A stretch of 20,994 nt of DNA. Source: Coleofasciculus sp. B1-GNL1-01 (GTDB taxonomy: Bacteria; Cyanobacteriota; Cyanobacteriia; Cyanobacteriales; Coleofasciculaceae). The position numbers and the translations under genes are program-made. The stretch is taken from NCBI GenBank assembly GCA_040220235.1, contig JAVJTO010000043.1. One strand, 5' to 3'. Shown here one piece after another: positions 1,482 through 15,799 of the stretch. Position 1 is the first letter of the stretch; each line of letters opens with the position of its first letter. Under the pieces are notes generated by a model. It saw only the letters and a list, made by a program, of their open reading frames with translations, was not told the DNA's origin and searched no databases.

Positions 1482-4400
1482 ATGTCTGAGTATATGCACA
1501 GCCAACCAAAAGGATCGTCTCAATCTAATTCGACGCCAGTCCCGAATCCGTTACAGCCTAATCGGTTTAACGTTCCGCCCCCAGCCTCACCCCAACCCCA
1601 GGAACCCGTAGATATCCAAGCCCAACGGGAAAAAGCGGATCACCTCAAGTCCAATCTGCTGGAAATCCCGGTTAGTACGTCAGACGCCCCACCACCACCA
1701 AATCAGTCGCAGACGGGATTGGGAAATACTACCCAACGGCGGCTCAAACCTCTGGTTAATCCCCTGAACCGGCTAAATTCTCAGCCAGGGAATCCCTCTA
1801 CATCTGAACCAACAGCCGAGGAGTCTGTGGTTCAACGTCAACCGGAAGACGGGGGTCAATTTCCACCCGGATTTGACCCCCATGAAAAAGCCCAAGCCTT
1901 GCATGATGCATTTGATGGCTGGGGAACCGATGAACGGAAAGTTCTGGATATTCTCTGGGCGGGGAACCGCGAACTGACTCAGGCAATTGAAGCGGCTTAT
2001 AATCAACGGTATCATCCGCCACTTGAACAAGCGCTGCATGATGAACTCTCCGGTGATGACTTGCAAAAAGCGTTGCAGCTTTTGGGTCATGGCAAACTGA
2101 CACTACGGGATAAAATTCGAGAAGCGGTTAAAGGCTGGGGAACAGATGAGGATAAGATATTTAATGCCTTAGATCGCGCCAGTGAAGCGGAACTGAATGA
2201 ACTGTGGAATGATCCAGAGTTGGTTACCTGGCTACGGAATGAGTTGAGTGGCGAAGATTTAAGTTTAGTCAATGCCTATTTAGAGGGGAATGGGGTACTC
2301 GCGGCAAAACTGCGACAAGCGATCGCGGGTTGGGGAACCGATGAAGCGGCGATCTGGCGGGCGATTGAGAGTGCTACTCCCCAAGAGAAGCAGTTTATTT
2401 TATCTCAACCCAAGTTACTCAATGACTTGAAAGCCGATTTATCTGAGTCTGACTGGATTCGTTGCGATCGCACGCTTCGGGGTACGCTAACGAATGTAGA
2501 CCGGATTGAAATGGCGATCGCGGGTTGGGGAACCGATGAAGCGGGATTGAAAGCGGCGCTATCTGGACTCACCGCCCAAGAGTTTAGCCAGCTTCCCGAA
2601 ACGATTGATCAATTCCTGGGTGCCGAACTATCGGGAAGCGATTTAGTCGAAGCACAGGAAATCCTGCATCAGCAACGACTGAAGTATGACCCAGAGTATC
2701 AACAGGCATATTTGAACCAACAAGGTGAAGCATTAGGCGAAGACGCGATCGCAGATGCAGGGAATTCGGTTTTAATTGCCGGTGATGGACAAAGCCAGTC
2801 CGCCGTGGGACAACTCAAAGCCGCTTGTGCGGGTTTAGGTACCGATGAAAAACAAATCTGGCAAGTCCTCAATTCCCTGAGTGAGTCGGAACGACAGTTT
2901 ATTCGAGAACGCAATCCCCAAGGGGTGCTGGATGTACTGCGAAGTGATTTATCTGAAGCGGACTACACTCGCGCCATGGAATTGCTCAGTGGGGGTGCGG
3001 GTTCAACCGTCGCCGCGATTAAACAAGCCGTAGAAGGGTTAGGTACAGATGAGCGGTTACTCTATGATGCCATTGACCGCATCCTCAACGAAGGCGTCGC
3101 CGCTGACATTTTAGCCGATCAGAATTTACTGCAACAGATTCGCAAAGATATTTCCGCCAAACAATATGATATCTTCTACGACGCCCTGCGGATCGGTCAC
3201 TTCACGCCCCTAATGCGCCTGCAATGGGCAACCGCGATGGCAGGAACCGACGAGGAGTTAGTCTTTGAACTGTGCCGAGAGTATGGACAACAATGGTATA
3301 GCCAGGGTCAAATAAAACCTGCGATCGCGGCTATCCTACAACGGGAACTAGATACCCGCGACTATTGGCAAGCCCTGGACTTAATCCGAGGCGAACCCCA
3401 AACCGAAGCCGAACGATTAGCCCGGGCGAAGGAACTCCTGGAACGAGAACGGGGCGGAATCAGCACGGGCATTATGGATGCTCTCTCCTCCAGTGGGGAA
3501 AATGCCGATGATGCGTGGCGAGAGTATCAAGCCACCTATAATAATGCCCTAGCCGATGGGGAACTCACCGAAGCAGAACAGCAGTTACTGCGCCGGGATG
3601 AAGAATTCTCTAAACGGATGACGGCAGAATATCGGGATGCCAAAGCCACCGTCGCTCAATGGGCAACTACCATTGCCGTTGCCATTGTCGGTATTGCTGC
3701 TACCCTTCTCACCGCTGGTGCGGCGGGTCCCTTTGTTATGGCGTTAGGTGGGAAGGTCGCGGTTGCGGCTGAAGCGATGGTGCTGGCGGCGGCGTTAAAA
3801 GTGGGTTTGAATAAAGCGATTCAGGGTGAGGGATACGACGTAACCAGCACTCAGGCTCTAGTGGATGCCGTTTCTGCCAGTGTTGAGGTGGGTTTAACCA
3901 TGGTGGGTGGTCATTTGGCAACCCAGTTTATGCAAGGCATGGGCAAGACAGCCCTGGCTCAATCCGTCGCCCCTGGAGTCCAAAAAGTCTTTGGTCAAGC
4001 CGGTACCCGCATCCTCAACGCCGGTTTAGAAGGTAGCATTGATGCCACGATTGGCGGTATTGGTGAAGGCATTATTCAAGGCATGGCTCAGGATGAAACC
4101 TGGGCGGGTGGTGTTGAAGGCTTCTTCAAGAACATGGGAACCTCCGTTGGCGTGAATGCCTTAATGAGTGGCGTTGGTGGTGGTATGGCTGGCGCTGGGT
4201 TTAAGAGTATTGGCGAAGTGTTTGGTCCTCGGTTGCGGAGTCGAGCGCCGGAGACACCACCAGCGAACTCAGATGCTCCCCCCTCGAACCTGCCAGATAG
4301 TCCCGAACGCACAACACCGACTTCGACAGGCGATTCCGTAGATGGAGAGATTAAGCCACCCGATAGCCAACCTGAGATAGAAAGTCCCAGTAGTACTCAC

Positions 4401-7399: not shown

Positions 7400-7975
7400 A
7401 TGTCTCCTACGGCTATCAGGCAACTTTTAGAGCAAGAGCGGTTTGTTGAAGTTCTCTATTTTGGTGCGCTTCAACTTGTGTCCTGTCCTACAGCAGAACT
7501 GCATCTCGACCTGGGTTTAGCATGCTGCGCTGCGATCAAACCAATTGCTCAACTTGAACGAGATTTAGCATCCGAAGATGAGACTAATCAATCGTATTTA
7601 GGACGATTAACCGTTGGTCGTGGTACAAGGCTAGTCAATGAGGGACTGCACCATTTGCTTCAAGCCACTCGTCTAGACCCCCAAATCCGATTTCCGCCCT
7701 CATTGGAGGCAATTACAATCAAGGTTTTGCGGGATCTGGAAGATTATTTAGGGCAAGAATTCAAGGGGTTTTCCGCTTCTGAACTGGATTACTCTCTGCG
7801 TTCAGCCGGATTGGCAGCTTTAGTATTACTGACTCGCTTACAAGGACTCGCTCCCGAACCATCAGGGGTATCATCAGATTTTAGGATTCAAGCCGCCGAT
7901 GAAATTTTAGCAAAGGTATCTTCATCCTCACTCAAACAAGCCAGTTTCTACAACCTAAGTATAGATAATGCTTAA
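7400..7975 (+). CDS. Hypothetical helical Leu-rich protein; candidate immunity/partner protein
   Basis: 191-aa ORF with ATG start and upstream AAGGGG/AAAGAA, directly downstream of the toxin-like gene. No recognisable family; the role is inferred from position only. Confidence 0.6.
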   Translation: MSPTAIRQLLEQERFVEVLYFGALQLVSCPTAELHLDLGLACCAAIKPIAQLERDLASEDETNQSYLGRLTVGRGTRLVNEGLHHLLQATRLDPQIRFPPSLEAITIKVLRDLEDYLGQEFKGFSASELDYSLRSAGLAALVLLTRLQGLAPEPSGVSSDFRIQAADEILAKVSSSSLKQASFYNLSIDNA

Positions 7976-8040
7976 AAGTCAGGTTAACTCAGCAGACTGA
8001 ATCAGCCTGTCCATCAATTCTTAGTTAAGGATGAATCGTT

Positions 8041-8946
8041 ATGGAAGAAATAACTAAATGTGAAATCATTTCTACTCTCAGGGGTCATTCCGATTTTTTA
8101 TACTGTCTTGCTATCAGCCCGGATGGACAAACATTATTCAGTGCCAGTCGAGATAAAACTATCAAAGTTTGGCATCTACAGAGTGGTGAAGAATTACGTA
8201 CTCTTAGGGGCCACGAAAGCTTGGTTTTTGATTTAGTTATCAGCTCAAATGGTCAAATGTTAGTGAGTGGTAGTAGTGATGAAACGATAAAAGTATGGGA
8301 CGTGCATAGGGGTGAAGAAATTATCACGATTAGAGGACATAAAGGACGAGTTAATGCTCTGGCTCTCAGTCCCGATGGACAGACTTTAGTGAGTACCAGT
8401 ATGGATAAGACCATTAAGATTTGGCATCTCAAAACGGGTCAAGAGATTCGCACCTTCAGCCATAACTCTAGCTATGTTCATGATCTTACCATCAGTCCCG
8501 ATGGACAGACGTTAGTCAGTGGAGGCAAAGCCAAAACCATCAAAATTTGGAATTTGCTCACGGGTCAAGAAATTCGTACTCTCATCGGTCATACTAACGA
8601 TATTGATTCTGTTGCGATTAGTCCCGATGGACAAACTCTAGCCAGTGGCGGTTGGGACGAAACCATTAAATTGTGGCATCTCGCCAGTGGTCAAGAAATT
8701 CGTACCATACCTTGTGGATTTTTAGGGACAGTTCACTGTGCTACGTTTAGCCCAGATGGACAAACAATCGCTAGTGGTCATAAAGATGGAACGATTCGAT
8801 TTTGGCAGGTAAAGACAGGTACACAGTTATTTGAGTTAGGGGAGCATTCTGATGGTGTTAATTGCGTGGTGTTCAGTCCTGATGGCAAAAGGTTAGCAAG
8901 TTGTGCATTATGGGATAAGACGATCAAGATATGGAAATTGCAATAA
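8041..8946 (+). CDS. WD40-repeat protein (7 repeats, single beta-propeller)
   Basis: Seven GH..V..LAISPDGQTL.S.S.D.TIK.W units with no additional domain. Confidence 0.95.
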   Translation: MEEITKCEIISTLRGHSDFLYCLAISPDGQTLFSASRDKTIKVWHLQSGEELRTLRGHESLVFDLVISSNGQMLVSGSSDETIKVWDVHRGEEIITIRGHKGRVNALALSPDGQTLVSTSMDKTIKIWHLKTGQEIRTFSHNSSYVHDLTISPDGQTLVSGGKAKTIKIWNLLTGQEIRTLIGHTNDIDSVAISPDGQTLASGGWDETIKLWHLASGQEIRTIPCGFLGTVHCATFSPDGQTIASGHKDGTIRFWQVKTGTQLFELGEHSDGVNCVVFSPDGKRLASCALWDKTIKIWKLQ

Positions 8947-8992
8947 ACTTTAGATTAGCCAACTATACGTGAGTAACAAGAGGTATTATCCC

Positions 8993-9766
8993 ATGGTCAA
9001 TCCCAATCATTTGGCACATCTTAAACAAGGCGCTGTGGCTTGGAATCAGTGGCGACAAGAAAATCATCCAGACATCTTGGGGGATTTTTCTAGGGCTGAT
9101 TTGAGCAACATGGATTTGAGTGGGGTAAATCTGAGTAAGGCGAAATTGAATGATGCCAATCTCAGTGGCGCTAACCTCCGTGGAGCTAACCTGAATCAGG
9201 CTAAATTGTGGAGAGTTAACCTGCGAGAGGCTAACCTCACAGGTGCTACGTTGAGTGAGGCTTACCTTAATGATGTTGACCTGAGTGGTTTAAATTTGAG
9301 TGGAATTGATTTCAGCGAGGCATGGCTAGAAAAGGTGAATCTCCGTGGTGCAGATTTGTCTAATGCAAATTTGACCAATGCAACCCTGAATGGCGCTAAT
9401 CTAGAAAATGCTAATTTAGACGGCGCTAATTTGTTTGGCATAAATCTCTACCAAGCTAATCTGCCAGGTGTCAATTTAGGGGGGCTAAATTTAGAAGAAG
9501 CGGATCTGAGTGAAGCTAACCTACAAGGTGTAACCTTAGAAGGAGCTAACCTAGAATATACCGCTATTGTAGAAACAAACCTACAAGGCGCTAACCTGAA
9601 GGGAGCCAACCTGAAAACGGCGAACCTAACTGATACTAACCTGGAAGATGCTAATCTTGAAGGCGCTAATCTTGAAGATGCTGTTTTATTTGGGGCGTTG
9701 CTCACTAATGCGAATCTCAATAACGCTAACTTGGAAGGCGTTGATTGGACGGGAGAGAGTAGTTGA
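8993..9766 (+). CDS. Pentapeptide-repeat protein
   Basis: Continuous A(N/D)LxG repeats after the typical N-terminal cap HL..LKQG...WNQWR. ATG 8993 has AAGAGG upstream and is preferred to GTG 8969. Confidence 0.93.
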   Translation: MVNPNHLAHLKQGAVAWNQWRQENHPDILGDFSRADLSNMDLSGVNLSKAKLNDANLSGANLRGANLNQAKLWRVNLREANLTGATLSEAYLNDVDLSGLNLSGIDFSEAWLEKVNLRGADLSNANLTNATLNGANLENANLDGANLFGINLYQANLPGVNLGGLNLEEADLSEANLQGVTLEGANLEYTAIVETNLQGANLKGANLKTANLTDTNLEDANLEGANLEDAVLFGALLTNANLNNANLEGVDWTGESS

Positions 9767-9793
9767 CGTTTTCAGGTTCTGATACTAGACAAA

Positions 9794-11713
9794 ATGGTAG
9801 AAAATTACTCATTCCAATGTTTGCACACGTTGCAACAATATGCGGGGCAATCGGTTGTGATCTGTCATGACGAAAAACGTTTTATAAGTGGCGGCGAAGA
9901 TTATACGATTAAAATTGGGAATTTATTGACTAAGCAGGATATTAGCTACCTGAGAGGACATCAAGCACGAGTCACTTGTCTGGCGCTGAGTCCAGATGGG
10001 AAAACTCTAATTAGTGCTGACGATAGTCCTGATTATGTTATTAAAGTCTGGGACTTACAACTGAAACAGGAACGAATCACCCTTGAGCGTTTTCACACCA
10101 ATCGAATTTCTTCTTTGGTGATTAGTCCAGACGGGACAACTCTTTTTAGTAGTGGTTGCGATCGCGAGGTGGGAATGTGGGATTTAACCACGGGTGAGCT
10201 AGTCCATACCTTTTGGCAAGATGACCGTGGTGTTTATTCCCTGGCAATTAGCCCAGATGGGAAATGTTTGGTCTGTGGCAATGGCAAGGGATATATTGAT
10301 GTCTGGGATTTGACGACAAAACAAAAAGTAAAGTCTTTTCAAGGACATACTGAAGATATTCAGGCGTTGGCAATGAGTCCAGATGGGCAGATGCTAATTA
10401 GTGGTAGTGGTGAGTTTGAAGGTCGAGACTTTACTATCAAAGCCTGGGCGATGAAAACTGGGCAAGAACTTTATACCTGTCAGGGACATAGCAATGTGAT
10501 CAAATCCCTGGCAATTAGTGCTGATGGACGGTACTTTGTCAGTGGGAGTGATGATACAACGATTAAGGTGTGGGATGTGCCAACCGGAGAATTAATCCGT
10601 ACCCTGAGAGGACATCGCCATTATGTTAACGCTGTGGCGATTAGTCGCGATCGCGAAACCTTAATCAGCGCCAGTAACGATAAAACCCTGAGACAGTGGA
10701 ATTTAGCCACAGGAGAACTTCTCCATACCTACGGCGGACATTCCAGCTATGTGAATTGTCTGGCGATGCATCCTCACGGTAACGTCTTTGCCAGTGGGAG
10801 TTACGACAATAGCGTCAGAGTTTGGGATCTGCCCACGGGGAATGAACGAGTGATCCTGGCGGGGCGATCGCACTCAGGACTAACCGCGATTATTACCTCA
10901 AACGACGAGATTGTTGACATTATTCCGGCAGAAAATACCCGCAGAAAAACTACAGGACATTCGGATTGGATTGAATGCCTAACATTTAGTCCAGATGGGC
11001 AAATTCTGGTTAGTGGGAGTGCCGATCACAGAATTAATTTGTGGAATTGGCAAACAGGCGCACTCCTGCACACACTTAAAGGTCATTCCGATAGAGTGCT
11101 AGCGGTTGCCGTAAGTCCAGATGGACAAACATTGGTGAGTGGTGCTAATGACAAAACGCTGAAACTGTGGAATTTGTCAACCGGAAAACTGATGCAGACG
11201 ATTCCAGCATCAGCCCCCGTTCATAGCGTTGTGATTACTCCGTTGATTTCAAGGTTAAACCGTTCACTCCTGATTGCTGGTGTTGGTCAAACTATTCATA
11301 TTTGGGATTGGGAAGCCAAGAATCAGCTTCAGACGTTGGTGGGACATGGTTTTGATGTAATAGCTTTGGCACTCACCGCTGAGAATCAAAGGTTAATTAG
11401 TGGTGCTATAGACGGCATCAAACTATGGGATTTGTGCCAAGGGGAGCAAATTTATACGATTAAAAAAAATGCCCATCAACTTGAATCAATGGCTATTCCT
11501 CCTGGGGGACAACCTCTGGTTAGCAGTCATGATGAAGAAGAAAAGACGATCAAGTTATGGAATTTGAAAGCCAGACAACCCCTTCAGACTCTGACTGGAC
11601 ATTCAAGTTTGATTACAAGTTGGATTAGAGGTGTCGCGATTACTCCGGATGGGAAAACGATTATCAGTGGCAGTTGGGATAAAACCATTAAAATTTGGGG
11701 CATAATTCAGTAG
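9794..11713 (+). CDS. WD40-repeat protein (about 14 repeats, probable double beta-propeller)
   Basis: 14 WD40 units counted by eye, with a ~30-aa insertion after repeat 8. No kinase or NACHT domain. Confidence 0.95.
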   Translation: MVENYSFQCLHTLQQYAGQSVVICHDEKRFISGGEDYTIKIGNLLTKQDISYLRGHQARVTCLALSPDGKTLISADDSPDYVIKVWDLQLKQERITLERFHTNRISSLVISPDGTTLFSSGCDREVGMWDLTTGELVHTFWQDDRGVYSLAISPDGKCLVCGNGKGYIDVWDLTTKQKVKSFQGHTEDIQALAMSPDGQMLISGSGEFEGRDFTIKAWAMKTGQELYTCQGHSNVIKSLAISADGRYFVSGSDDTTIKVWDVPTGELIRTLRGHRHYVNAVAISRDRETLISASNDKTLRQWNLATGELLHTYGGHSSYVNCLAMHPHGNVFASGSYDNSVRVWDLPTGNERVILAGRSHSGLTAIITSNDEIVDIIPAENTRRKTTGHSDWIECLTFSPDGQILVSGSADHRINLWNWQTGALLHTLKGHSDRVLAVAVSPDGQTLVSGANDKTLKLWNLSTGKLMQTIPASAPVHSVVITPLISRLNRSLLIAGVGQTIHIWDWEAKNQLQTLVGHGFDVIALALTAENQRLISGAIDGIKLWDLCQGEQIYTIKKNAHQLESMAIPPGGQPLVSSHDEEEKTIKLWNLKARQPLQTLTGHSSLITSWIRGVAITPDGKTIISGSWDKTIKIWGIIQ

Positions 11714-11859
11714 TTTTTCAGTCACGTAACCCAAAAAGTTTTAAAGGATACTGAAATCTAACTTTAACTCCAATTTAGTAAAGTATACTCATTACCCTTC
11801 TACTCTTGTAACCTTTTGCCCCCTTTCCCCTATACAAGAACGATACTACTGAACTTGAT

Positions 11860-12747
11860 ATGAGCTTGGATTATAACCCCCTCTTCCAAGGTGCTGCCCG
11901 TCTTGGACTTCTACTGGGCGCGATCGATTTACCCTGGAACCGCGTCACCCCCTACGTGGAAGCCTTTGCCAGCGAACTCAATGCTTACCAGGAACTATCT
12001 CTAGACAGCACCGCTACGACAGTCGGCTTAATGACCCGTGGAAGTGGCAAAGATTTCGCCTTTCGCATCGCTCGTTATCTGGAAAACCACGGCATTGATG
12101 AGTCAAGACTGCGACGTTTCTTAGTTCGAGCTAAATTCTTAGAGTACCAAAATCTTTTCTTTAAAGTCGAGATAAATTCAGCAGAACTTTTCGAGTTTTC
12201 CTACTATTTTCGTCAGCGTATTTCATTAGAGGTTGTTGGCGCTTGGTTACGGGATACGGGTGTTGATACTGAAGGACTTGCCTACGTTTATGCTTGTGCG
12301 AAAGAACTGCAAAAGCAAACGGTTCATTTCTTAGCAACGGCTGAACGTCCTCAAGGTGAAAGTCTGGAGAAAGTTTATTTTAGTCAACCCCAAGATTTAG
12401 AGGTTTGGGATAGAGCTAAAAATGCCAGTTACCTGGCTGGTTTAACCGAAAACTGTTGGCAACCCCTTGTCCCTTTCCAGACTAGGCTGAGAAATCAACC
12501 TCTCTTTTTGTCGTTGGCATTTTCGGGTGGACAATTTTGTCCTGGAATTAAACTGGATATTCAAGGAGTGACTCCCGATATCGTCGAGACGTTGATGCAG
12601 CAGGCGGGATGTTCCCCGGAGGTATGTAAGGGAACGCAACTGTTGCTCAACCTGTTTGAGAAGCAACAGTTTGACTATTTAGGAGTTCATCTCAACCCAA
12701 ATACTTCTTTTGACACCAAAGTTTACGTTTATCACAGTTGTGATTAG
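11860..12747 (+). CDS. Hypothetical protein, possibly ABBA (PT-barrel) prenyltransferase-like fold
   Basis: 295 aa; periodic paired beta-strands (FFKVEI/FSYYF, HFLAT/EKVYF, FLSLAF/IKLDI, YLGVHL/TKVYVY) separated by helices. The fold call is pattern-based only. Confidence 0.55.
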   Translation: MSLDYNPLFQGAARLGLLLGAIDLPWNRVTPYVEAFASELNAYQELSLDSTATTVGLMTRGSGKDFAFRIARYLENHGIDESRLRRFLVRAKFLEYQNLFFKVEINSAELFEFSYYFRQRISLEVVGAWLRDTGVDTEGLAYVYACAKELQKQTVHFLATAERPQGESLEKVYFSQPQDLEVWDRAKNASYLAGLTENCWQPLVPFQTRLRNQPLFLSLAFSGGQFCPGIKLDIQGVTPDIVETLMQQAGCSPEVCKGTQLLLNLFEKQQFDYLGVHLNPNTSFDTKVYVYHSCD

Positions 12748-12844: not shown

Positions 12845-15799
12845 TTATTTCGCTTCCATCCAATTTTTACCCTCACTCACATCCACGACTAACGGGACAG
12901 CTAACTCAACGGCTGACTCCATTGTCTCTGGTATTTTTGCTTGCAATTCCTCCCATTCATGCGGCGGAACTTCAAAGACTAATTCATCATGGACTTGCAA
13001 CAATAATCGCGCCTGGTAATTCTGTAACACCTGATGCATTTTGACCATGGCAATTTTGATAATATCCGCACTAGAACCTTGAATCGGAGCATTAGCAGCC
13101 GCTCGGAGTAACCCCGCGTCATATTGACCGATTCCCTTAAATTCATCCAGATTAATCTCTTTCGGATTTTTACCTTTAGCATCGCGCAATCGGTTACTAT
13201 TAAATTCAAAGTAACGGCGACGTCCTAAAATCGTCTCCACATAACCCTTGGCGATCGCGTCCCGTTTCTTCTGCTCCAAATACCCGAAAACTTTGGCATA
13301 GCGTTGCTTTAATCGGTCAATAAATTCCTTTCCTTCCGCCGCCGATACTCCGGCTTCTCTGGCAAATCGCTGGGGTCCCATACCGTAGATCACGCCAAAG
13401 TTAATTGTTTTTCCCAATCGTCGTTCGTCTGGCGTTACGGTTTCTTTTTCAAACAATAATTTAGCAGTTACTGCGTGAACATCCTGATTATTCCGGTAGG
13501 TTTCCACCAGTAAGGGTTCTTGACTCAGATGTGCCAAAATCCGTAACTCAATTTGGGAATAGTCTGCGGATACTAATAACCAACCTGATTCAGGTAAAAA
13601 TGCTTGGCGAATTTGGCGACTAAACGCCGTCCGAATCGGAATATTCTGTAAATTAGGATTCGATGAGGATAGACGTCCTGTGCTGGTTATTGTTTGATTA
13701 AAATCAGTATGTATGCGTTGGGTATCTTTATGAACCAGTTTCGGCAAAGCATCAACATAAGTGGATTTTAATTTAGAGAGGGTGCGGTGTTTGAGAATGG
13801 TATCAATAACCGGATGATCCCCTTGTAGCTTTTCCAATGTGGCATGATCCGTTGAGTAGCCTGTTTTCATTTTGCGCGACTTGCGGCGGTCGAGATTCAG
13901 TTTCTCAAATAGTAATTCACTTAACTGTTTGGGAGATCCTAAATTAAATTCTTCTCCGGCTTGCTTGTAAGCGTTCTGTTCAATATCGGCGAGTTCCTTT
14001 TCGAGAGATTCCGAGAGTTCTTTGAGGTAAGCCGTATCAATACGAATTCCCTGATATTCCATCTGGGCTAACACCGGTTCTAGCGGTTGCTCAACCTCAA
14101 TCAACAGCTTCTCTAGCGCCGGAATTGCTTTCAGTTCTTCCCTGAGTTTAGGAACCAGTTGAAACGTGGCATAGACTTGCATCCCGCAGTATTCTGCCAC
14201 CGTTTTGCTACTCAATGCAGCAATGGTTTTTCCTTTGGGAATCTTTAAATCTTTGTAGCTTTTTAGCTGAATTTGGGGGAAGTAGCGTTCGGTTAAACTA
14301 TTAAGATTATGACTATTGTCGGGATTGAGAACATAACTGGCTAGCATGGTATCCATCACTACTCCTGCTAGTTTAATCCCTTGACTCTGGAAGATTAGGC
14401 GGTCAAACTTTACATTCTGTAGCACTTTGGGATAGCGATCGCGCTCTAAAATAGGACGCAGTGCTTCTAGAACGGTCTGTTTGTCTAAATTCTGACCCTG
14501 GTTATGGGCGATCGGGATATAAGCAACATCTGTTGCTTCAAGTCCCCAACAGCAACCAATACCCACCAATTCGGCGTTCCGTGGCTTCACATCACTGGTT
14601 TCTGTATCCCAAGCCACTGGAGTTTTTATGTTCGTGCAGTTTTCCAGAATATCGACCAGTTGGTCTAATTTATCTTTTGTATCAATAATTCTAGGTTGAA
14701 TTGGACAACTGGCTGCCGCTTGTTTCTGATAGTCTTCTGTTTCATCGGCTGTCCAGAAAGACAGATCAGGACTACTGTCTTCAACCGAGGGTTCTGATTC
14801 TGTCCCTGCATCTTCCGCCACGTTTCCACCAAAACGCTGGTGAATTTCGTCAATTTTCTTTAAGAAAAACTCGAATTCTAGTTTTTGTAAGAAAGGCTTA
14901 AGTACAGAGGTATCAAACCCCTCTAACTTTCCCGCCTTTAATTCCACATCCACAGGTGCATCAAAAGCCAATTGCGCTAAATACTTAGAATGTTCAGCGT
15001 CTTGCTTTCCGGTTTCCAGTTTCGTTTTTACCGCACCTTTAATCTGATCGAGGGATGCATAAATGCCTTCTAGGGAACCAAAATCATTCAGTAACTTAAC
15101 CGCCGTTTTTTCGCCAATTCCCCTCACTCCGGGAATATTATCGGATTTATCGCCACAAAGGGCTTTGTAATCCACTACCTGTTCTGGTGTAATACCCAGT
15201 TTATTTTTTACCCCTTGGGTGCTATATTCTTCCAGTCCAGTGGAACTGCCGCTTTTTAATGCCTTATGGCTGAGATAGAGAACCGTAATTGACTTTTGCG
15301 GATCGATGAGTTGAAACAGGTCGCGATCGCCAGTTAAAATTTTTACCTGATACCCTTCATCAGTCGCCCGATGTGCCAAGGTTGCTAAAACATCATCAGC
15401 CTCATAGCCCGGAACCGCCAATACGGGTAAATTCAACGCCGTCAGCAATGCTTTGAGATTCTGCAAATCTGGGATAAAATCTTCCGGTGTCTCCGGTCTA
15501 TCGGCTTTATAGGTATCATCCGCTTCGTGACGAAATGTTGGCAATTCCAGGTCAAACGCCACCGCCATCGCCTGAGGTTGCTGGGAACTGATCACCTCTA
15601 ATAAGGACTTGAGAAAGCCAAAACACACACTGGTGGGTATTCCACTCTTGGTTCGTAGTCCCCCATCTCGTCCTTTAGCGAAGGCGTAATAGGAACGAAA
15701 CGCGAGAGAATGACCGTCAACCAGAATAAATAGTGGTTTTCCTGCCGTTGTTGAATCGGCAGAGGGAGAGGCGTTAGGCACAGGCATTGATTGAGACAT
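12845..15799 (-). CDS. polA: DNA polymerase I
   Basis: 5'-3' exonuclease motifs (LVDGHSLAFRSYY, YEADD, TGDRD, GDKSDNIPGV.GIGEKTA); 3'-5' exo region (WDTET, NVKFD); polymerase motifs TGRLSS..PNLQNIP, ADYSQIELR, KTINFGVIYG, LQVHDELVFE. Confidence 0.99.
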   Translation of the reverse strand: MSQSMPVPNASPSADSTTAGKPLFILVDGHSLAFRSYYAFAKGRDGGLRTKSGIPTSVCFGFLKSLLEVISSQQPQAMAVAFDLELPTFRHEADDTYKADRPETPEDFIPDLQNLKALLTALNLPVLAVPGYEADDVLATLAHRATDEGYQVKILTGDRDLFQLIDPQKSITVLYLSHKALKSGSSTGLEEYSTQGVKNKLGITPEQVVDYKALCGDKSDNIPGVRGIGEKTAVKLLNDFGSLEGIYASLDQIKGAVKTKLETGKQDAEHSKYLAQLAFDAPVDVELKAGKLEGFDTSVLKPFLQKLEFEFFLKKIDEIHQRFGGNVAEDAGTESEPSVEDSSPDLSFWTADETEDYQKQAAASCPIQPRIIDTKDKLDQLVDILENCTNIKTPVAWDTETSDVKPRNAELVGIGCCWGLEATDVAYIPIAHNQGQNLDKQTVLEALRPILERDRYPKVLQNVKFDRLIFQSQGIKLAGVVMDTMLASYVLNPDNSHNLNSLTERYFPQIQLKSYKDLKIPKGKTIAALSSKTVAEYCGMQVYATFQLVPKLREELKAIPALEKLLIEVEQPLEPVLAQMEYQGIRIDTAYLKELSESLEKELADIEQNAYKQAGEEFNLGSPKQLSELLFEKLNLDRRKSRKMKTGYSTDHATLEKLQGDHPVIDTILKHRTLSKLKSTYVDALPKLVHKDTQRIHTDFNQTITSTGRLSSSNPNLQNIPIRTAFSRQIRQAFLPESGWLLVSADYSQIELRILAHLSQEPLLVETYRNNQDVHAVTAKLLFEKETVTPDERRLGKTINFGVIYGMGPQRFAREAGVSAAEGKEFIDRLKQRYAKVFGYLEQKKRDAIAKGYVETILGRRRYFEFNSNRLRDAKGKNPKEINLDEFKGIGQYDAGLLRAAANAPIQGSSADIIKIAMVKMHQVLQNYQARLLLQVHDELVFEVPPHEWEELQAKIPETMESAVELAVPLVVDVSEGKNWMEAK

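Follow-up and report, generated by a model that had tools for sequence, protein, structure and literature searches.

A modular annexin-repeat protein of Coleofasciculus sp. B1-GNL1-01 as a probable cargo toxin of a contractile injection system, encoded by a gene that is split in the available assembly

Contig C43 of the mat-forming cyanobacterium Coleofasciculus sp. B1-GNL1-01 (NCBI GenBank assembly GCA_040220235.1, contig JAVJTO010000043.1), all 20,994 bases of which were analyzed and are referred to below as the window, carries on the plus strand, at positions 1482–6785, a gene for a modular protein of 1767 aa (P0001). The product of this gene is probably a polymorphic toxin carried as cargo by a phage-tail-like contractile injection system (CIS), from a family whose members usually possess the domain DUF4157 (eCIS_core); the intact form of the protein has 2002 aa, and its loading into a CIS is a prediction. 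The ends of the protein are exchanged among relatives, relatives of each of its modules are found on eCIS_core proteins, the annexin repeats bear the signature of their family, an acidic triad is conserved in the C-terminal half, and CIS genes are present elsewhere in the genome (8.66 Mb, 172 contigs). In the window the gene is broken, and its 3′ part is seen as a separate open reading frame (ORF). The records closest to the window carry the name Coleofasciculus.

Modules of the Large Protein and Their Relatives

A preliminary description of the window, made from its letters, divided the protein into a leader, seven annexin repeats, a hydrophobic block, a proline-rich linker, a CSDC motif and an enzyme-like C-terminal half (C-half), and all of these parts were recovered. 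The leader (aa 1–125, positions 1482–1856, plus strand, as are all features of the gene given below) is rich in Pro, Ser, Gln and Asn, its disorder being judged by composition alone; composition and alignment to the leader of a DUF4157 protein make it a candidate CIS loading sequence.

The annexin repeats occupy aa 134–640 (1881–3401) and are arranged as four repeats, a gap of 38 aa and three further repeats. They were recognized by Pfam (Annexin, PF00191, E 2.8e-24, with 85.4 bits where the cut-off is 25), by a match to annexin VI in the PDB (E 5.7e-26) and by alignment of the repeats with one another. The repeats are of the G(W/L)GTDE type, with GxGTDE kept in repeats 1–6 and AMAGTDE in repeat 7, and the alignment of all seven places an acidic residue within (D/E)(L/I)S(G/E/A), 34–42 residues past the first Gly. 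Repeat 1 has the canonical spacing of a type II Ca2+ site, namely GWGT and the Glu of DELSG at an offset of 42 from the first G. Repeats 2–6 combine GxGT with an acidic residue in the corresponding (D/E)(L/I)S column, their B–C region being 4–8 residues shorter, and repeat 7 is degenerate at the Ca2+ site. By these matches the protein belongs to the annexins, by these residues it carries their Ca2+-site signature, and binding of Ca2+ and acidic phospholipids is predicted for it from the family.

The next module is a Gly/Ala-rich hydrophobic block with glycine-zipper-like motifs, delimited by hydropathy and composition at aa 720–915 (3639–4226). It includes two strongly hydrophobic stretches at aa ~722–778 (Kyte–Doolittle windows of 19 aa with values above 1.4 start at aa 722–759), contains 18% G, 18% A and seven GxxxG motifs, and has a GxxxG density of 0.036 versus 0.004 in the remaining protein; no Pfam match to it was found at E ≤ 10. 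The Pro/Ser/Thr-rich linker at aa 916–996 (4227–4469) is the recombination junction of the family, as indicated by the ends of alignments and by a step in GC content. Neither eCIS_core (PF13699) nor HExxH is present in the 1767-aa protein, and family searches, in which signal peptides were not searched for, found in it no known trafficking domain of other secretion systems.

Searches with the whole protein gave 49 relatives, two of which are full-length. The region of aa ~115–920, comprising the annexin repeats and the hydrophobic block, is common to 35 of the 49 (30–66% identity), and in most of these 35 the alignment stops at aa 918–946, at the start of the Pro-rich linker. The organization proposed in the preliminary description, a polymorphic toxin-type protein with a constant N half and swapped C termini, is borne out by these 35 relatives with other C-terminal ends. 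A calpain-type protease is precomputed for 20 of them and is C-terminal in both of the two that were scanned, and P0009 ends in a transglutaminase-like domain. The domain eCIS_core (DUF4157) stands in front of the annexin repeats in six of the 35 according to precomputed annotations (P0005, P0006, P0008, P0009, P0011 and P0013), and was confirmed at aa 80–341 in the four of them scanned (P0005, P0008, P0009 and P0013).

Five relatives have the C-half and lack annexin repeats, and three of these (P0024, P0026 and P0028) match the large protein from the hydrophobic block onward. The ends that follow the C-half are also variable, being represented by a HENAE tail, a HELGH tail (P0024, P0026), another tail (P0028), an adenosine deaminase (P0040) or almost nothing (P0003, P0051). 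Domain scans of 61 relatives of the C-half revealed no recurrent partners other than eCIS_core (6), peptidoglycan-binding domains (2) and Ntox3 (1).

The GC content of the leader, annexin and hydrophobic parts (1482–4448) is 0.51–0.55 versus 0.418 in the C-half (4449–6785), the genome mean being 0.455 (sd 0.030 in 1.7-kb windows), with 0.55% of such windows at 0.52 or above. This step at the module junction, to which amino-acid composition contributes, is no more than a hint of a chimeric origin. The annexin module was found in none of 400 other genomes of the phylum searched, the large gene was not found in two of three congeners, and locus scans with the single protein detected only near-identical records of Coleofasciculus.

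Association with a Contractile Injection System

The genome search for eCIS/tCIS loci proposed in the preliminary description revealed one set of CIS parts, together with eCIS_core genes, on other contigs. There are 13 eCIS_core matches in the genome. Genes of the spike (Phage_GPD), gp25 and Baseplate_J are located on C172; genes of the sheath, three gp19 tube genes and a CIS_tube gene on C29; Pvc16_N on C30; and a gene of an ATPase with WHD and AAA domains, adjoining that of an eCIS_core+annexin protein, on C59. The large gene is located neither in nor beside a CIS cluster, and the earlier statement that the window encodes no secretion apparatus holds, with zero CIS genes on the 20,994-base contig.

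The leader links the protein to the DUF4157 proteins of the same genome. Its residues 37–124 align with the N-terminal region of a DUF4157 protein encoded on C85 with 47.0 bits, whereas 200 shuffles averaged 19.4 bits and did not exceed 27.3, and tblastn of the leader against the genome gave E 9.5e-5. The motifs NPLQxxRF, D(I/L)QAQxEKA and VQRQ are common to both leaders. A weaker similarity was found to the leaders of two annexin proteins, C59_881 (E 6e-4) and G494_831 (E 2e-4) of the congener G494.

The locus on C59 (C59:11109–18672, L031:3110–10673) contains, in this order, the gene of the WHD+AAA ATPase (692 aa), that of an 881-aa protein and genes of 200, 292 and 280 aa. The 881-aa protein comprises a leader, eCIS_core, annexin-like repeats and a HExxH end, and the first ~90 residues of the 280-aa protein are 60% identical to the leader of the 881-aa protein. 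The same order is kept in G494, where a 491-aa gene replaces the 200-aa ORF and a Barstar gene is inserted after the counterpart of the 292-aa gene.

The profile of the C-half detected this domain in 8 of the 400 other genomes of the phylum, and the surroundings were read in 4 of the 8. The best match (E 1.1e-148), in the genome G144 of the same order, is the C-terminal end of an eCIS_core protein, the gene of which lies between gp25/Baseplate_J and a WHD+AAA ATPase; this cluster (L053, C1:2837000–2856000) contains two adjacent eCIS_core cargo genes, of 836 and 783 aa. The remaining three surroundings contained no CIS genes. A gene for a 23S rRNA intervening-sequence protein is situated between Baseplate_J and gp25 in L053.

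For the system AlgoCIS, the available part of a 2026 preprint (10.64898/2026.05.27.728243) states that the disordered N-terminal domain is needed for cargo loading and DUF4157 is dispensable; it also states that cargos of one system are alike in their N-terminal domains. A protein that lacks DUF4157 and has a leader of the type of the system is therefore plausible as cargo, and a CIS is the likely delivery route of the large protein.

Nucleotidyltransferase-like Domain of the C-Half

The C-half begins with the CSxC element HxLKxLxDGxVVxCSxCExLExRY at aa 997–1025, recognized by a motif screen and followed by a coiled-coil stretch (together 4470–4874). The CSDC motif of the protein is located at aa 1013, and CSxC was found in 7 of 54 relatives screened (P0002, P0003, P0024, P0026, P0028, P0057 and P0063). 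The element was also considered as an end marker of the annexin module and was ruled out in this role, as the motif accompanies the C-half.

A search with aa 990–1767 against 1.84 billion representatives yielded 551 clusters (at 50% identity) at E ≤ 1e-3, of which 193 were at E ≤ 1e-10, and revealed two conserved blocks; no Pfam model covers the C-half. The enzyme domain itself, assigned by its conserved acids and a structure model, occupies aa ~1132–1754 (4875–6743). Invariant columns in 58 sequences are a G, S-D-x-D, D-x-N-x-Y and one Tyr; in the numbering of P0100, G96, S102, D103, D105 and D138 are invariant and S97 nearly so. The equivalents in the large protein are G1221/S1222, S1227/D1228/D1230 and D1265/N1267/Y1269. 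AlphaFold models had a pLDDT of 91.9 for the domain of the large protein and 89.5 for P0100, a homologue without the 89-residue hairpin described below. In the model the conserved acids lie on three short successive strands (residues 91–94, 104–109 and 139–143) of an otherwise mostly helical protein. The residues follow the Pol-beta-type pattern of hG[GS], [DE]x[DE] and a third acid, with an atypically short spacing of five residues between G-S and DxD.

Searches for a fold gave weak matches. Foldseek found no match in the PDB at E ≤ 1e-3 with either the C-half model of the query or P0100, and the C-half profile gave among PDB sequences a chance match alone (E 0.82). A wide structure search with the query model was dominated by coiled-coil matches to the inserted hairpin. 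In the ESM Atlas, P0100 matched unnamed clusters with scores of 0.90–0.91, a range that a shuffled query reaches 4–10 times in 100, and NTP_transf_2 at rank 12 with 0.89. The helical bundle after the strands aligns weakly with HEPN and ANT C-domains, these fold matches being within the range of possible chance. The similarity to Pol-beta-superfamily nucleotidyltransferases with a helical C-domain, namely aminoglycoside ANT/AAD(9), the MNT–HEPN pair and the adenylyltransferase domain of DrrA/GlnE, is that the model places G-S, DxD and a third Asp on three strands in succession, after which comes a helical bundle. Taken by these motifs, and with fold matches that are weak, the C-half is fairly probably nucleotidyltransferase-like. 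A family represented by 551 clusters at 50% identity is worth naming.

The domain contains an 89-residue coiled-coil hairpin (aa ~1281–1369, 5322–5588), seen in the model and in the alignment. The hairpin is at or near full length (79–89 residues) in 4 of 62 other aligned sequences (P0051, P0052, P0081 and P0089), and this region has only 7–16 residues in many others; by the alignment, it is read as a lineage-specific insertion.

Splitting of the Gene and the Tail Domain

The sequence of the window contains seven plus-strand ORFs, 1482–6785 (1767 aa), 6850–7332, 7400–7975, 8041–8946, 8969–9766, 9794–11713 and 11860–12747, separated by 64, 67, 65, 22, 27 and 146 bp. The closely spaced, co-oriented ORFs and their coordinates given in the preliminary description are correct, but the first two ORFs are one gene. 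Three near-identical records, one JGI metagenome contig (L013) and two metagenome-assembled genomes of Coleofasciculus (L014 and L015), each hold 145 more bases at window position 6778 (blastn, 97–99% nucleotide identity). In L013 and L015 both pieces lie inside one ORF of 2002 aa; the copy in L014 runs off the end of its contig. In all three records the large gene is succeeded on its 3′ side by the same five genes in unchanged order. In the window the loss of 145 bases (at 6778, ±1) causes a frameshift, so that the protein ends with ...SAHP at a premature stop at 6785 (deletion site and stop, 6778–6785, plus strand). No repeat is present at the ends of the deletion.

The 160-aa ORF at 6850–7332 (plus strand) is the severed tail of the large gene, with its HExAE and PYRYAH motifs, and no gene of its own. 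Its frame differs from that of the body of the gene, and it is 98% identical to the last 160 residues of P0002, a metagenome protein that is 95% identical to the query and extends beyond the query stop. The start of this ORF is a TTG inside the tail domain, with 4 of the 19 invariant columns of the domain (Y55, D64, I68 and A69) located upstream of it. A search for homologues of near-equal length gave no match for the 160-aa ORF, which fits its status as a fragment. The HExxE motif that had been attributed to the 1767-aa protein is not found there, as neither HExxE nor HExxH is present; HENAE is located in the 160-aa ORF. If this ORF was meant as the putative immunity gene, that assignment fails too, as the 2002-aa ORF of the near-identical records identifies it as the toxin's own cut-off tail. 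A small deletion can thus make the tail of a toxin resemble a separate 'immunity' gene, which is a lesson for annotation.

The intact 2002-aa form is the norm. Contigs of all four public runs examined, from four studies, contain the 145 letters between both flanks (one RNA library is among them, and one run bears an organism label). The short form in the window would be either a strain-specific truncation or an assembly error. An assembly or sequencing error in this record, the organism truly having the intact gene, is a possibility of some weight, though short of an even chance. The long form in the three related records and in the contigs of all four runs is consistent with it, as are the absence of the short junction from every listed run (best share of words 0.93) and the otherwise 98.8–99.2% identity of the flanks of the deletion to L013. 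Against an error, the loss is clean and without end repeats, which is unusual for an assembler artefact, and the source's own reads were not identified; moreover, inactivation of toxin genes in single strains is common. Natural alleles of the toxin gene thus include intact ones and a putative broken one.

The tail, taken from L015 (P0199), is a domain in its own right. Its relatives terminate three other proteins (45–52% identity), two of which contain eCIS_core. The family of seven sequences has 19 invariant columns, including H91, R103, H139-E140-x-x-E143 and H200, so that the HExxE motif noted earlier is conserved in a genuine domain family. Weak standalone relatives of 189–239 aa with the motif AHEYIE were found in 3 of the 400 other genomes of the phylum (L018 in G388, L019 in G292 and L020 in G364), each overlapping the start of a conserved partner gene of ~195–224 aa; no Pfam family was found for either the standalone relatives or the partners. 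These pairs look like two-gene modules of the toxin–immunity type. The tail itself matched nothing in Pfam at E ≤ 10, gave among PDB sequences only E 0.28 and 0.4, and in the ESM Atlas reached a best score of 0.86, with no assignable fold.

Proposed Mechanism and Alternatives

The following sequence of events is proposed for the large protein as a CIS cargo. The disordered leader of ~125 aa would mediate loading by the AAA+ ATPase of the CIS. After firing, the seven annexin repeats would dock onto acidic phospholipids with Ca2+, as expected of the family, and the hydrophobic block rich in glycine zippers may anchor the protein in the target membrane or insert it there. The Pro-rich linker would provide a flexible connection between the membrane module and the enzymes. 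The nucleotidyltransferase-like domain, to judge from its motifs, may transfer a nucleotide to a target molecule, and the tail of ~190 aa (HExAE, PYRYAH) could act as a second, exchangeable effector through metal or acid–base chemistry. The form encoded in this assembly would lack the latter, the gene being frameshifted by the 145-base deletion after the nucleotidyltransferase-like domain.

A wider reading, which is put forward tentatively and is rather unlikely to hold in full, would make the annexin core and the glycine-zipper block a Ca2+-triggered device for membrane targeting or insertion of CIS cargo, switched on by the Ca2+ influx at the puncture, with the block holding the enzymes at the wounded membrane. 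In this reading the C-half, which has 551 clusters and lacks a Pfam model, would establish a new family of nucleotidyltransferase toxins delivered by CISs, the HExAE tail family would add another new effector domain, and the family of the 295-aa ORF described below would be a conserved accessory of annexin-type cargo.

Alternatively, the protein may be a free-standing polymorphic toxin, released by lysis or by another export route and independent of any CIS, with the annexin repeats as a Ca2+-dependent receptor-binding module and the hydrophobic block translocating the enzymes. The lack of eCIS_core in the protein and of CIS genes on its contig fits this alternative, and the order of binding repeats, hydrophobic segment, linker and enzyme is similar to the one in polymorphic toxins, including those of the colicin type. 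Runs with the locus originate from marine and hypersaline mats, in which external Ca2+ is high, and three of the four C-half surroundings that were read are free of CIS genes. However, relatives of the annexin module have eCIS_core N-terminal ends, the leader is similar to leaders of DUF4157 proteins encoded elsewhere in this genome, eCIS_core proteins are found that carry the C-half domain or the tail, in one case within a CIS cluster, and the searches described above, which did not extend to signal peptides, found no trafficking domain of another secretion system. A free toxin is therefore considered unlikely, and the receptor-binding role assigned to the annexin repeats in the preliminary description is less likely than that of a membrane-targeting module of an injected cargo.

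It is improbable that the annexin and hydrophobic module works in the producer, anchoring the cargo or the machine to cyanobacterial membranes or forming part of a membrane-associated enzyme of the cell's own physiology that is no toxin: the block does resemble membrane anchors, no immunity gene was demonstrated at the locus, and the CISs of Anabaena are thylakoid-anchored, with cargo unproven, according to the available text of PMC8894136, but the exchangeable C-terminal ends (protease, transglutaminase, deaminase) are typical of toxins, the gene is accessory (it was not found in two of three congeners, and a search of 400 other genomes of the phylum did not detect the annexin module), and the GC content of the N half (0.51–0.55) is atypical of the genome (0.455).

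Comparison with Known Systems

The polymorphic toxin systems, reportedly set out by Zhang et al. in 2012, share with the locus a constant N-terminal part, an exchange of C-terminal domains at a linker and a small orphan gene that immediately follows the toxin stop. They differ in that delivery of the large protein is probably by loading into a CIS and not by classical trafficking domains, and in that the downstream immunity gene is only a candidate. Large injected or translocated toxins have membrane-localization domains, non-catalytic modules that place the enzymes on an acidic target membrane. The annexin core with the hydrophobic block would be an analogue of these domains, no homology being claimed, and would depend on Ca2+.

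The designation of the locus as an 'undescribed system' in the preliminary description was too strong. Fusions of bacterial annexins with DUF4157, with transmembrane regions and with toxin domains are already known from PMC3894181 (Kodavali et al. 2014), where annexin was suggested to aid delivery, and Annexin is listed among eCIS-associated eukaryote-like domains in PMC8213781 (Geller et al. 2021), along with a DUF4157–linker–toxin architecture; both statements are from the available text of these papers. The fusions of the former paper, from Haliangium, Microscilla and Burkholderiales JOSHI_001, are similar in this combination of domains, their toxin domains being Ntox3 and colicin D in the text available. 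In contrast to them, the large protein has seven repeats (4+3), a co-conserved glycine-rich hydrophobic block of 200 aa and other toxin ends. Cyanobacteria are mentioned 0 times in the available text of PMC3894181, and the paper predates the link between DUF4157 and eCIS.

The DUF4157 toxins of eCIS (EATs) in the available part of PMC8213781 and the AlgoCIS cargos Cgo1 and Cgo2 in that of the preprint (10.64898/2026.05.27.728243) resemble the large protein in having a disordered leader, a long middle part and a C-terminal effector that can be exchanged. For every module of the large protein there are relatives fused to eCIS_core, and the genome contains a CIS together with many dispersed DUF4157 genes, which is a further likeness. 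The large protein differs from these cargos in the lack of DUF4157, in its position away from CIS genes and in two enzyme-like C-domains without a Pfam model, and its loading is predicted here. Dispersed predicted eCIS toxins are reported for the filamentous cyanobacterium Moorena in the available text of PMC11297309, and DUF4157 proteins are putative cargo of the thylakoid-anchored CIS of Anabaena in that of PMC8894136.

In the literature searched, which did not cover subscription journals, there was no experimental study of an annexin-bearing bacterial toxin, and the only works found were the bioinformatic ones, PMC3894181 and PMC8213781. The kind of protein is thus already known. New are a member that lacks DUF4157 and has a leader of the type of the system, an annexin core of 4+3 repeats joined to a conserved glycine-rich block, three unnamed families (two of effector-like domains and one of accessory proteins) and a putative natural broken allele. 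The cargo of cyanobacterial CISs being essentially unknown, the locus provides a concrete example that can be dissected.

Downstream Genes and Flanking Regions

The 191-aa orphan ORF at 7400–7975 (plus strand) directly follows the stop of the intact gene and, by this position, is a possible immunity gene. No family was found for it in Pfam (also at E ≤ 10), NCBIfam or PADLOC, and there was neither a match in the 400 other genomes of the phylum nor a paralogue in its own genome; it is kept only at near-identical loci. A predicted complex of the tail domain with this protein scored 0.00 in both runs, made without controls, which speaks neither for nor against binding.

Genes of a WD40 protein (301 aa), a pentapeptide-repeat protein (265 aa) and a second WD40 protein (639 aa) follow at 8041–11713 (plus strand), 22 and 27 bp apart. 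They were assigned by Pfam (WD40, E 1.6e-83 and 3.7e-116; Pentapeptide, E 3.3e-66) and probably form a unit of their own. The three families occur at 60, 51 and 57 distinct places in the genome, respectively (E ≤ 1e-10), and the genes are not present at the annexin-cargo loci of C59 or G494. The accessory role given to them in the preliminary description does not agree with such large families of ~50–60 places each and with their lack of recurrence at the paralogous annexin-cargo locus, and they are most likely neighbors without a toxin role.

The 295-aa ORF at 11860–12747 (plus strand) belongs to an unnamed family with paralogues beside annexin/DUF4157 cargo genes and had no Pfam match at E ≤ 10. 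Paralogues with 24% identity from end to end are present on C59 (L031:8719–9597) and in the congener G494 (L032:12732–13610), each two genes downstream of the eCIS_core+annexin gene, which itself follows the WHD+AAA ATPase gene. This recurrence beside annexin cargo genes is small and real. PADLOC detected nothing relevant at the locus.

In two of three congeners nothing corresponds to the block up to position 12845, while polA, from 12846 on, is 87–93% identical; the cluster is therefore accessory as a block. This does not prove that the block is one functional unit, as the neighbors of polA differ in each genome. In a scan for promoters and terminators the counts were at or below shuffle expectation, with no terminator-like site on the plus strand. 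Contigs of RNA libraries contain the locus, their presence being no proof of transcription, and the runs that hold the locus come from marine and hypersaline mats.

Directly upstream of the toxin gene, positions 239–1156 contain a transposase-like gene of the Rpn family of PD-(D/E)XK proteins (PDDEXK_2, E 1.6e-47; DUF4351), represented by many copies in congeners (65–90% identity). Positions 1–141 recur on other congener contigs (82–100% identity), in G481 once at the first base of a contig. The flanks at 12845–15799 (minus strand) and 15997–20730 are represented by ordinary cyanobacterial housekeeping genes, the names of which were read from translations with no family search: DNA polymerase I, a sodium:alanine-symporter-like membrane protein, and universal-stress-like, HEAT-repeat and CpcT-like proteins. 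Sequences of 60–120 bases at 19208–19301, 19107–19170 and 18216–18334 have dozens of copies in three congeners (80–97% identity) and are probably small dispersed repeats.

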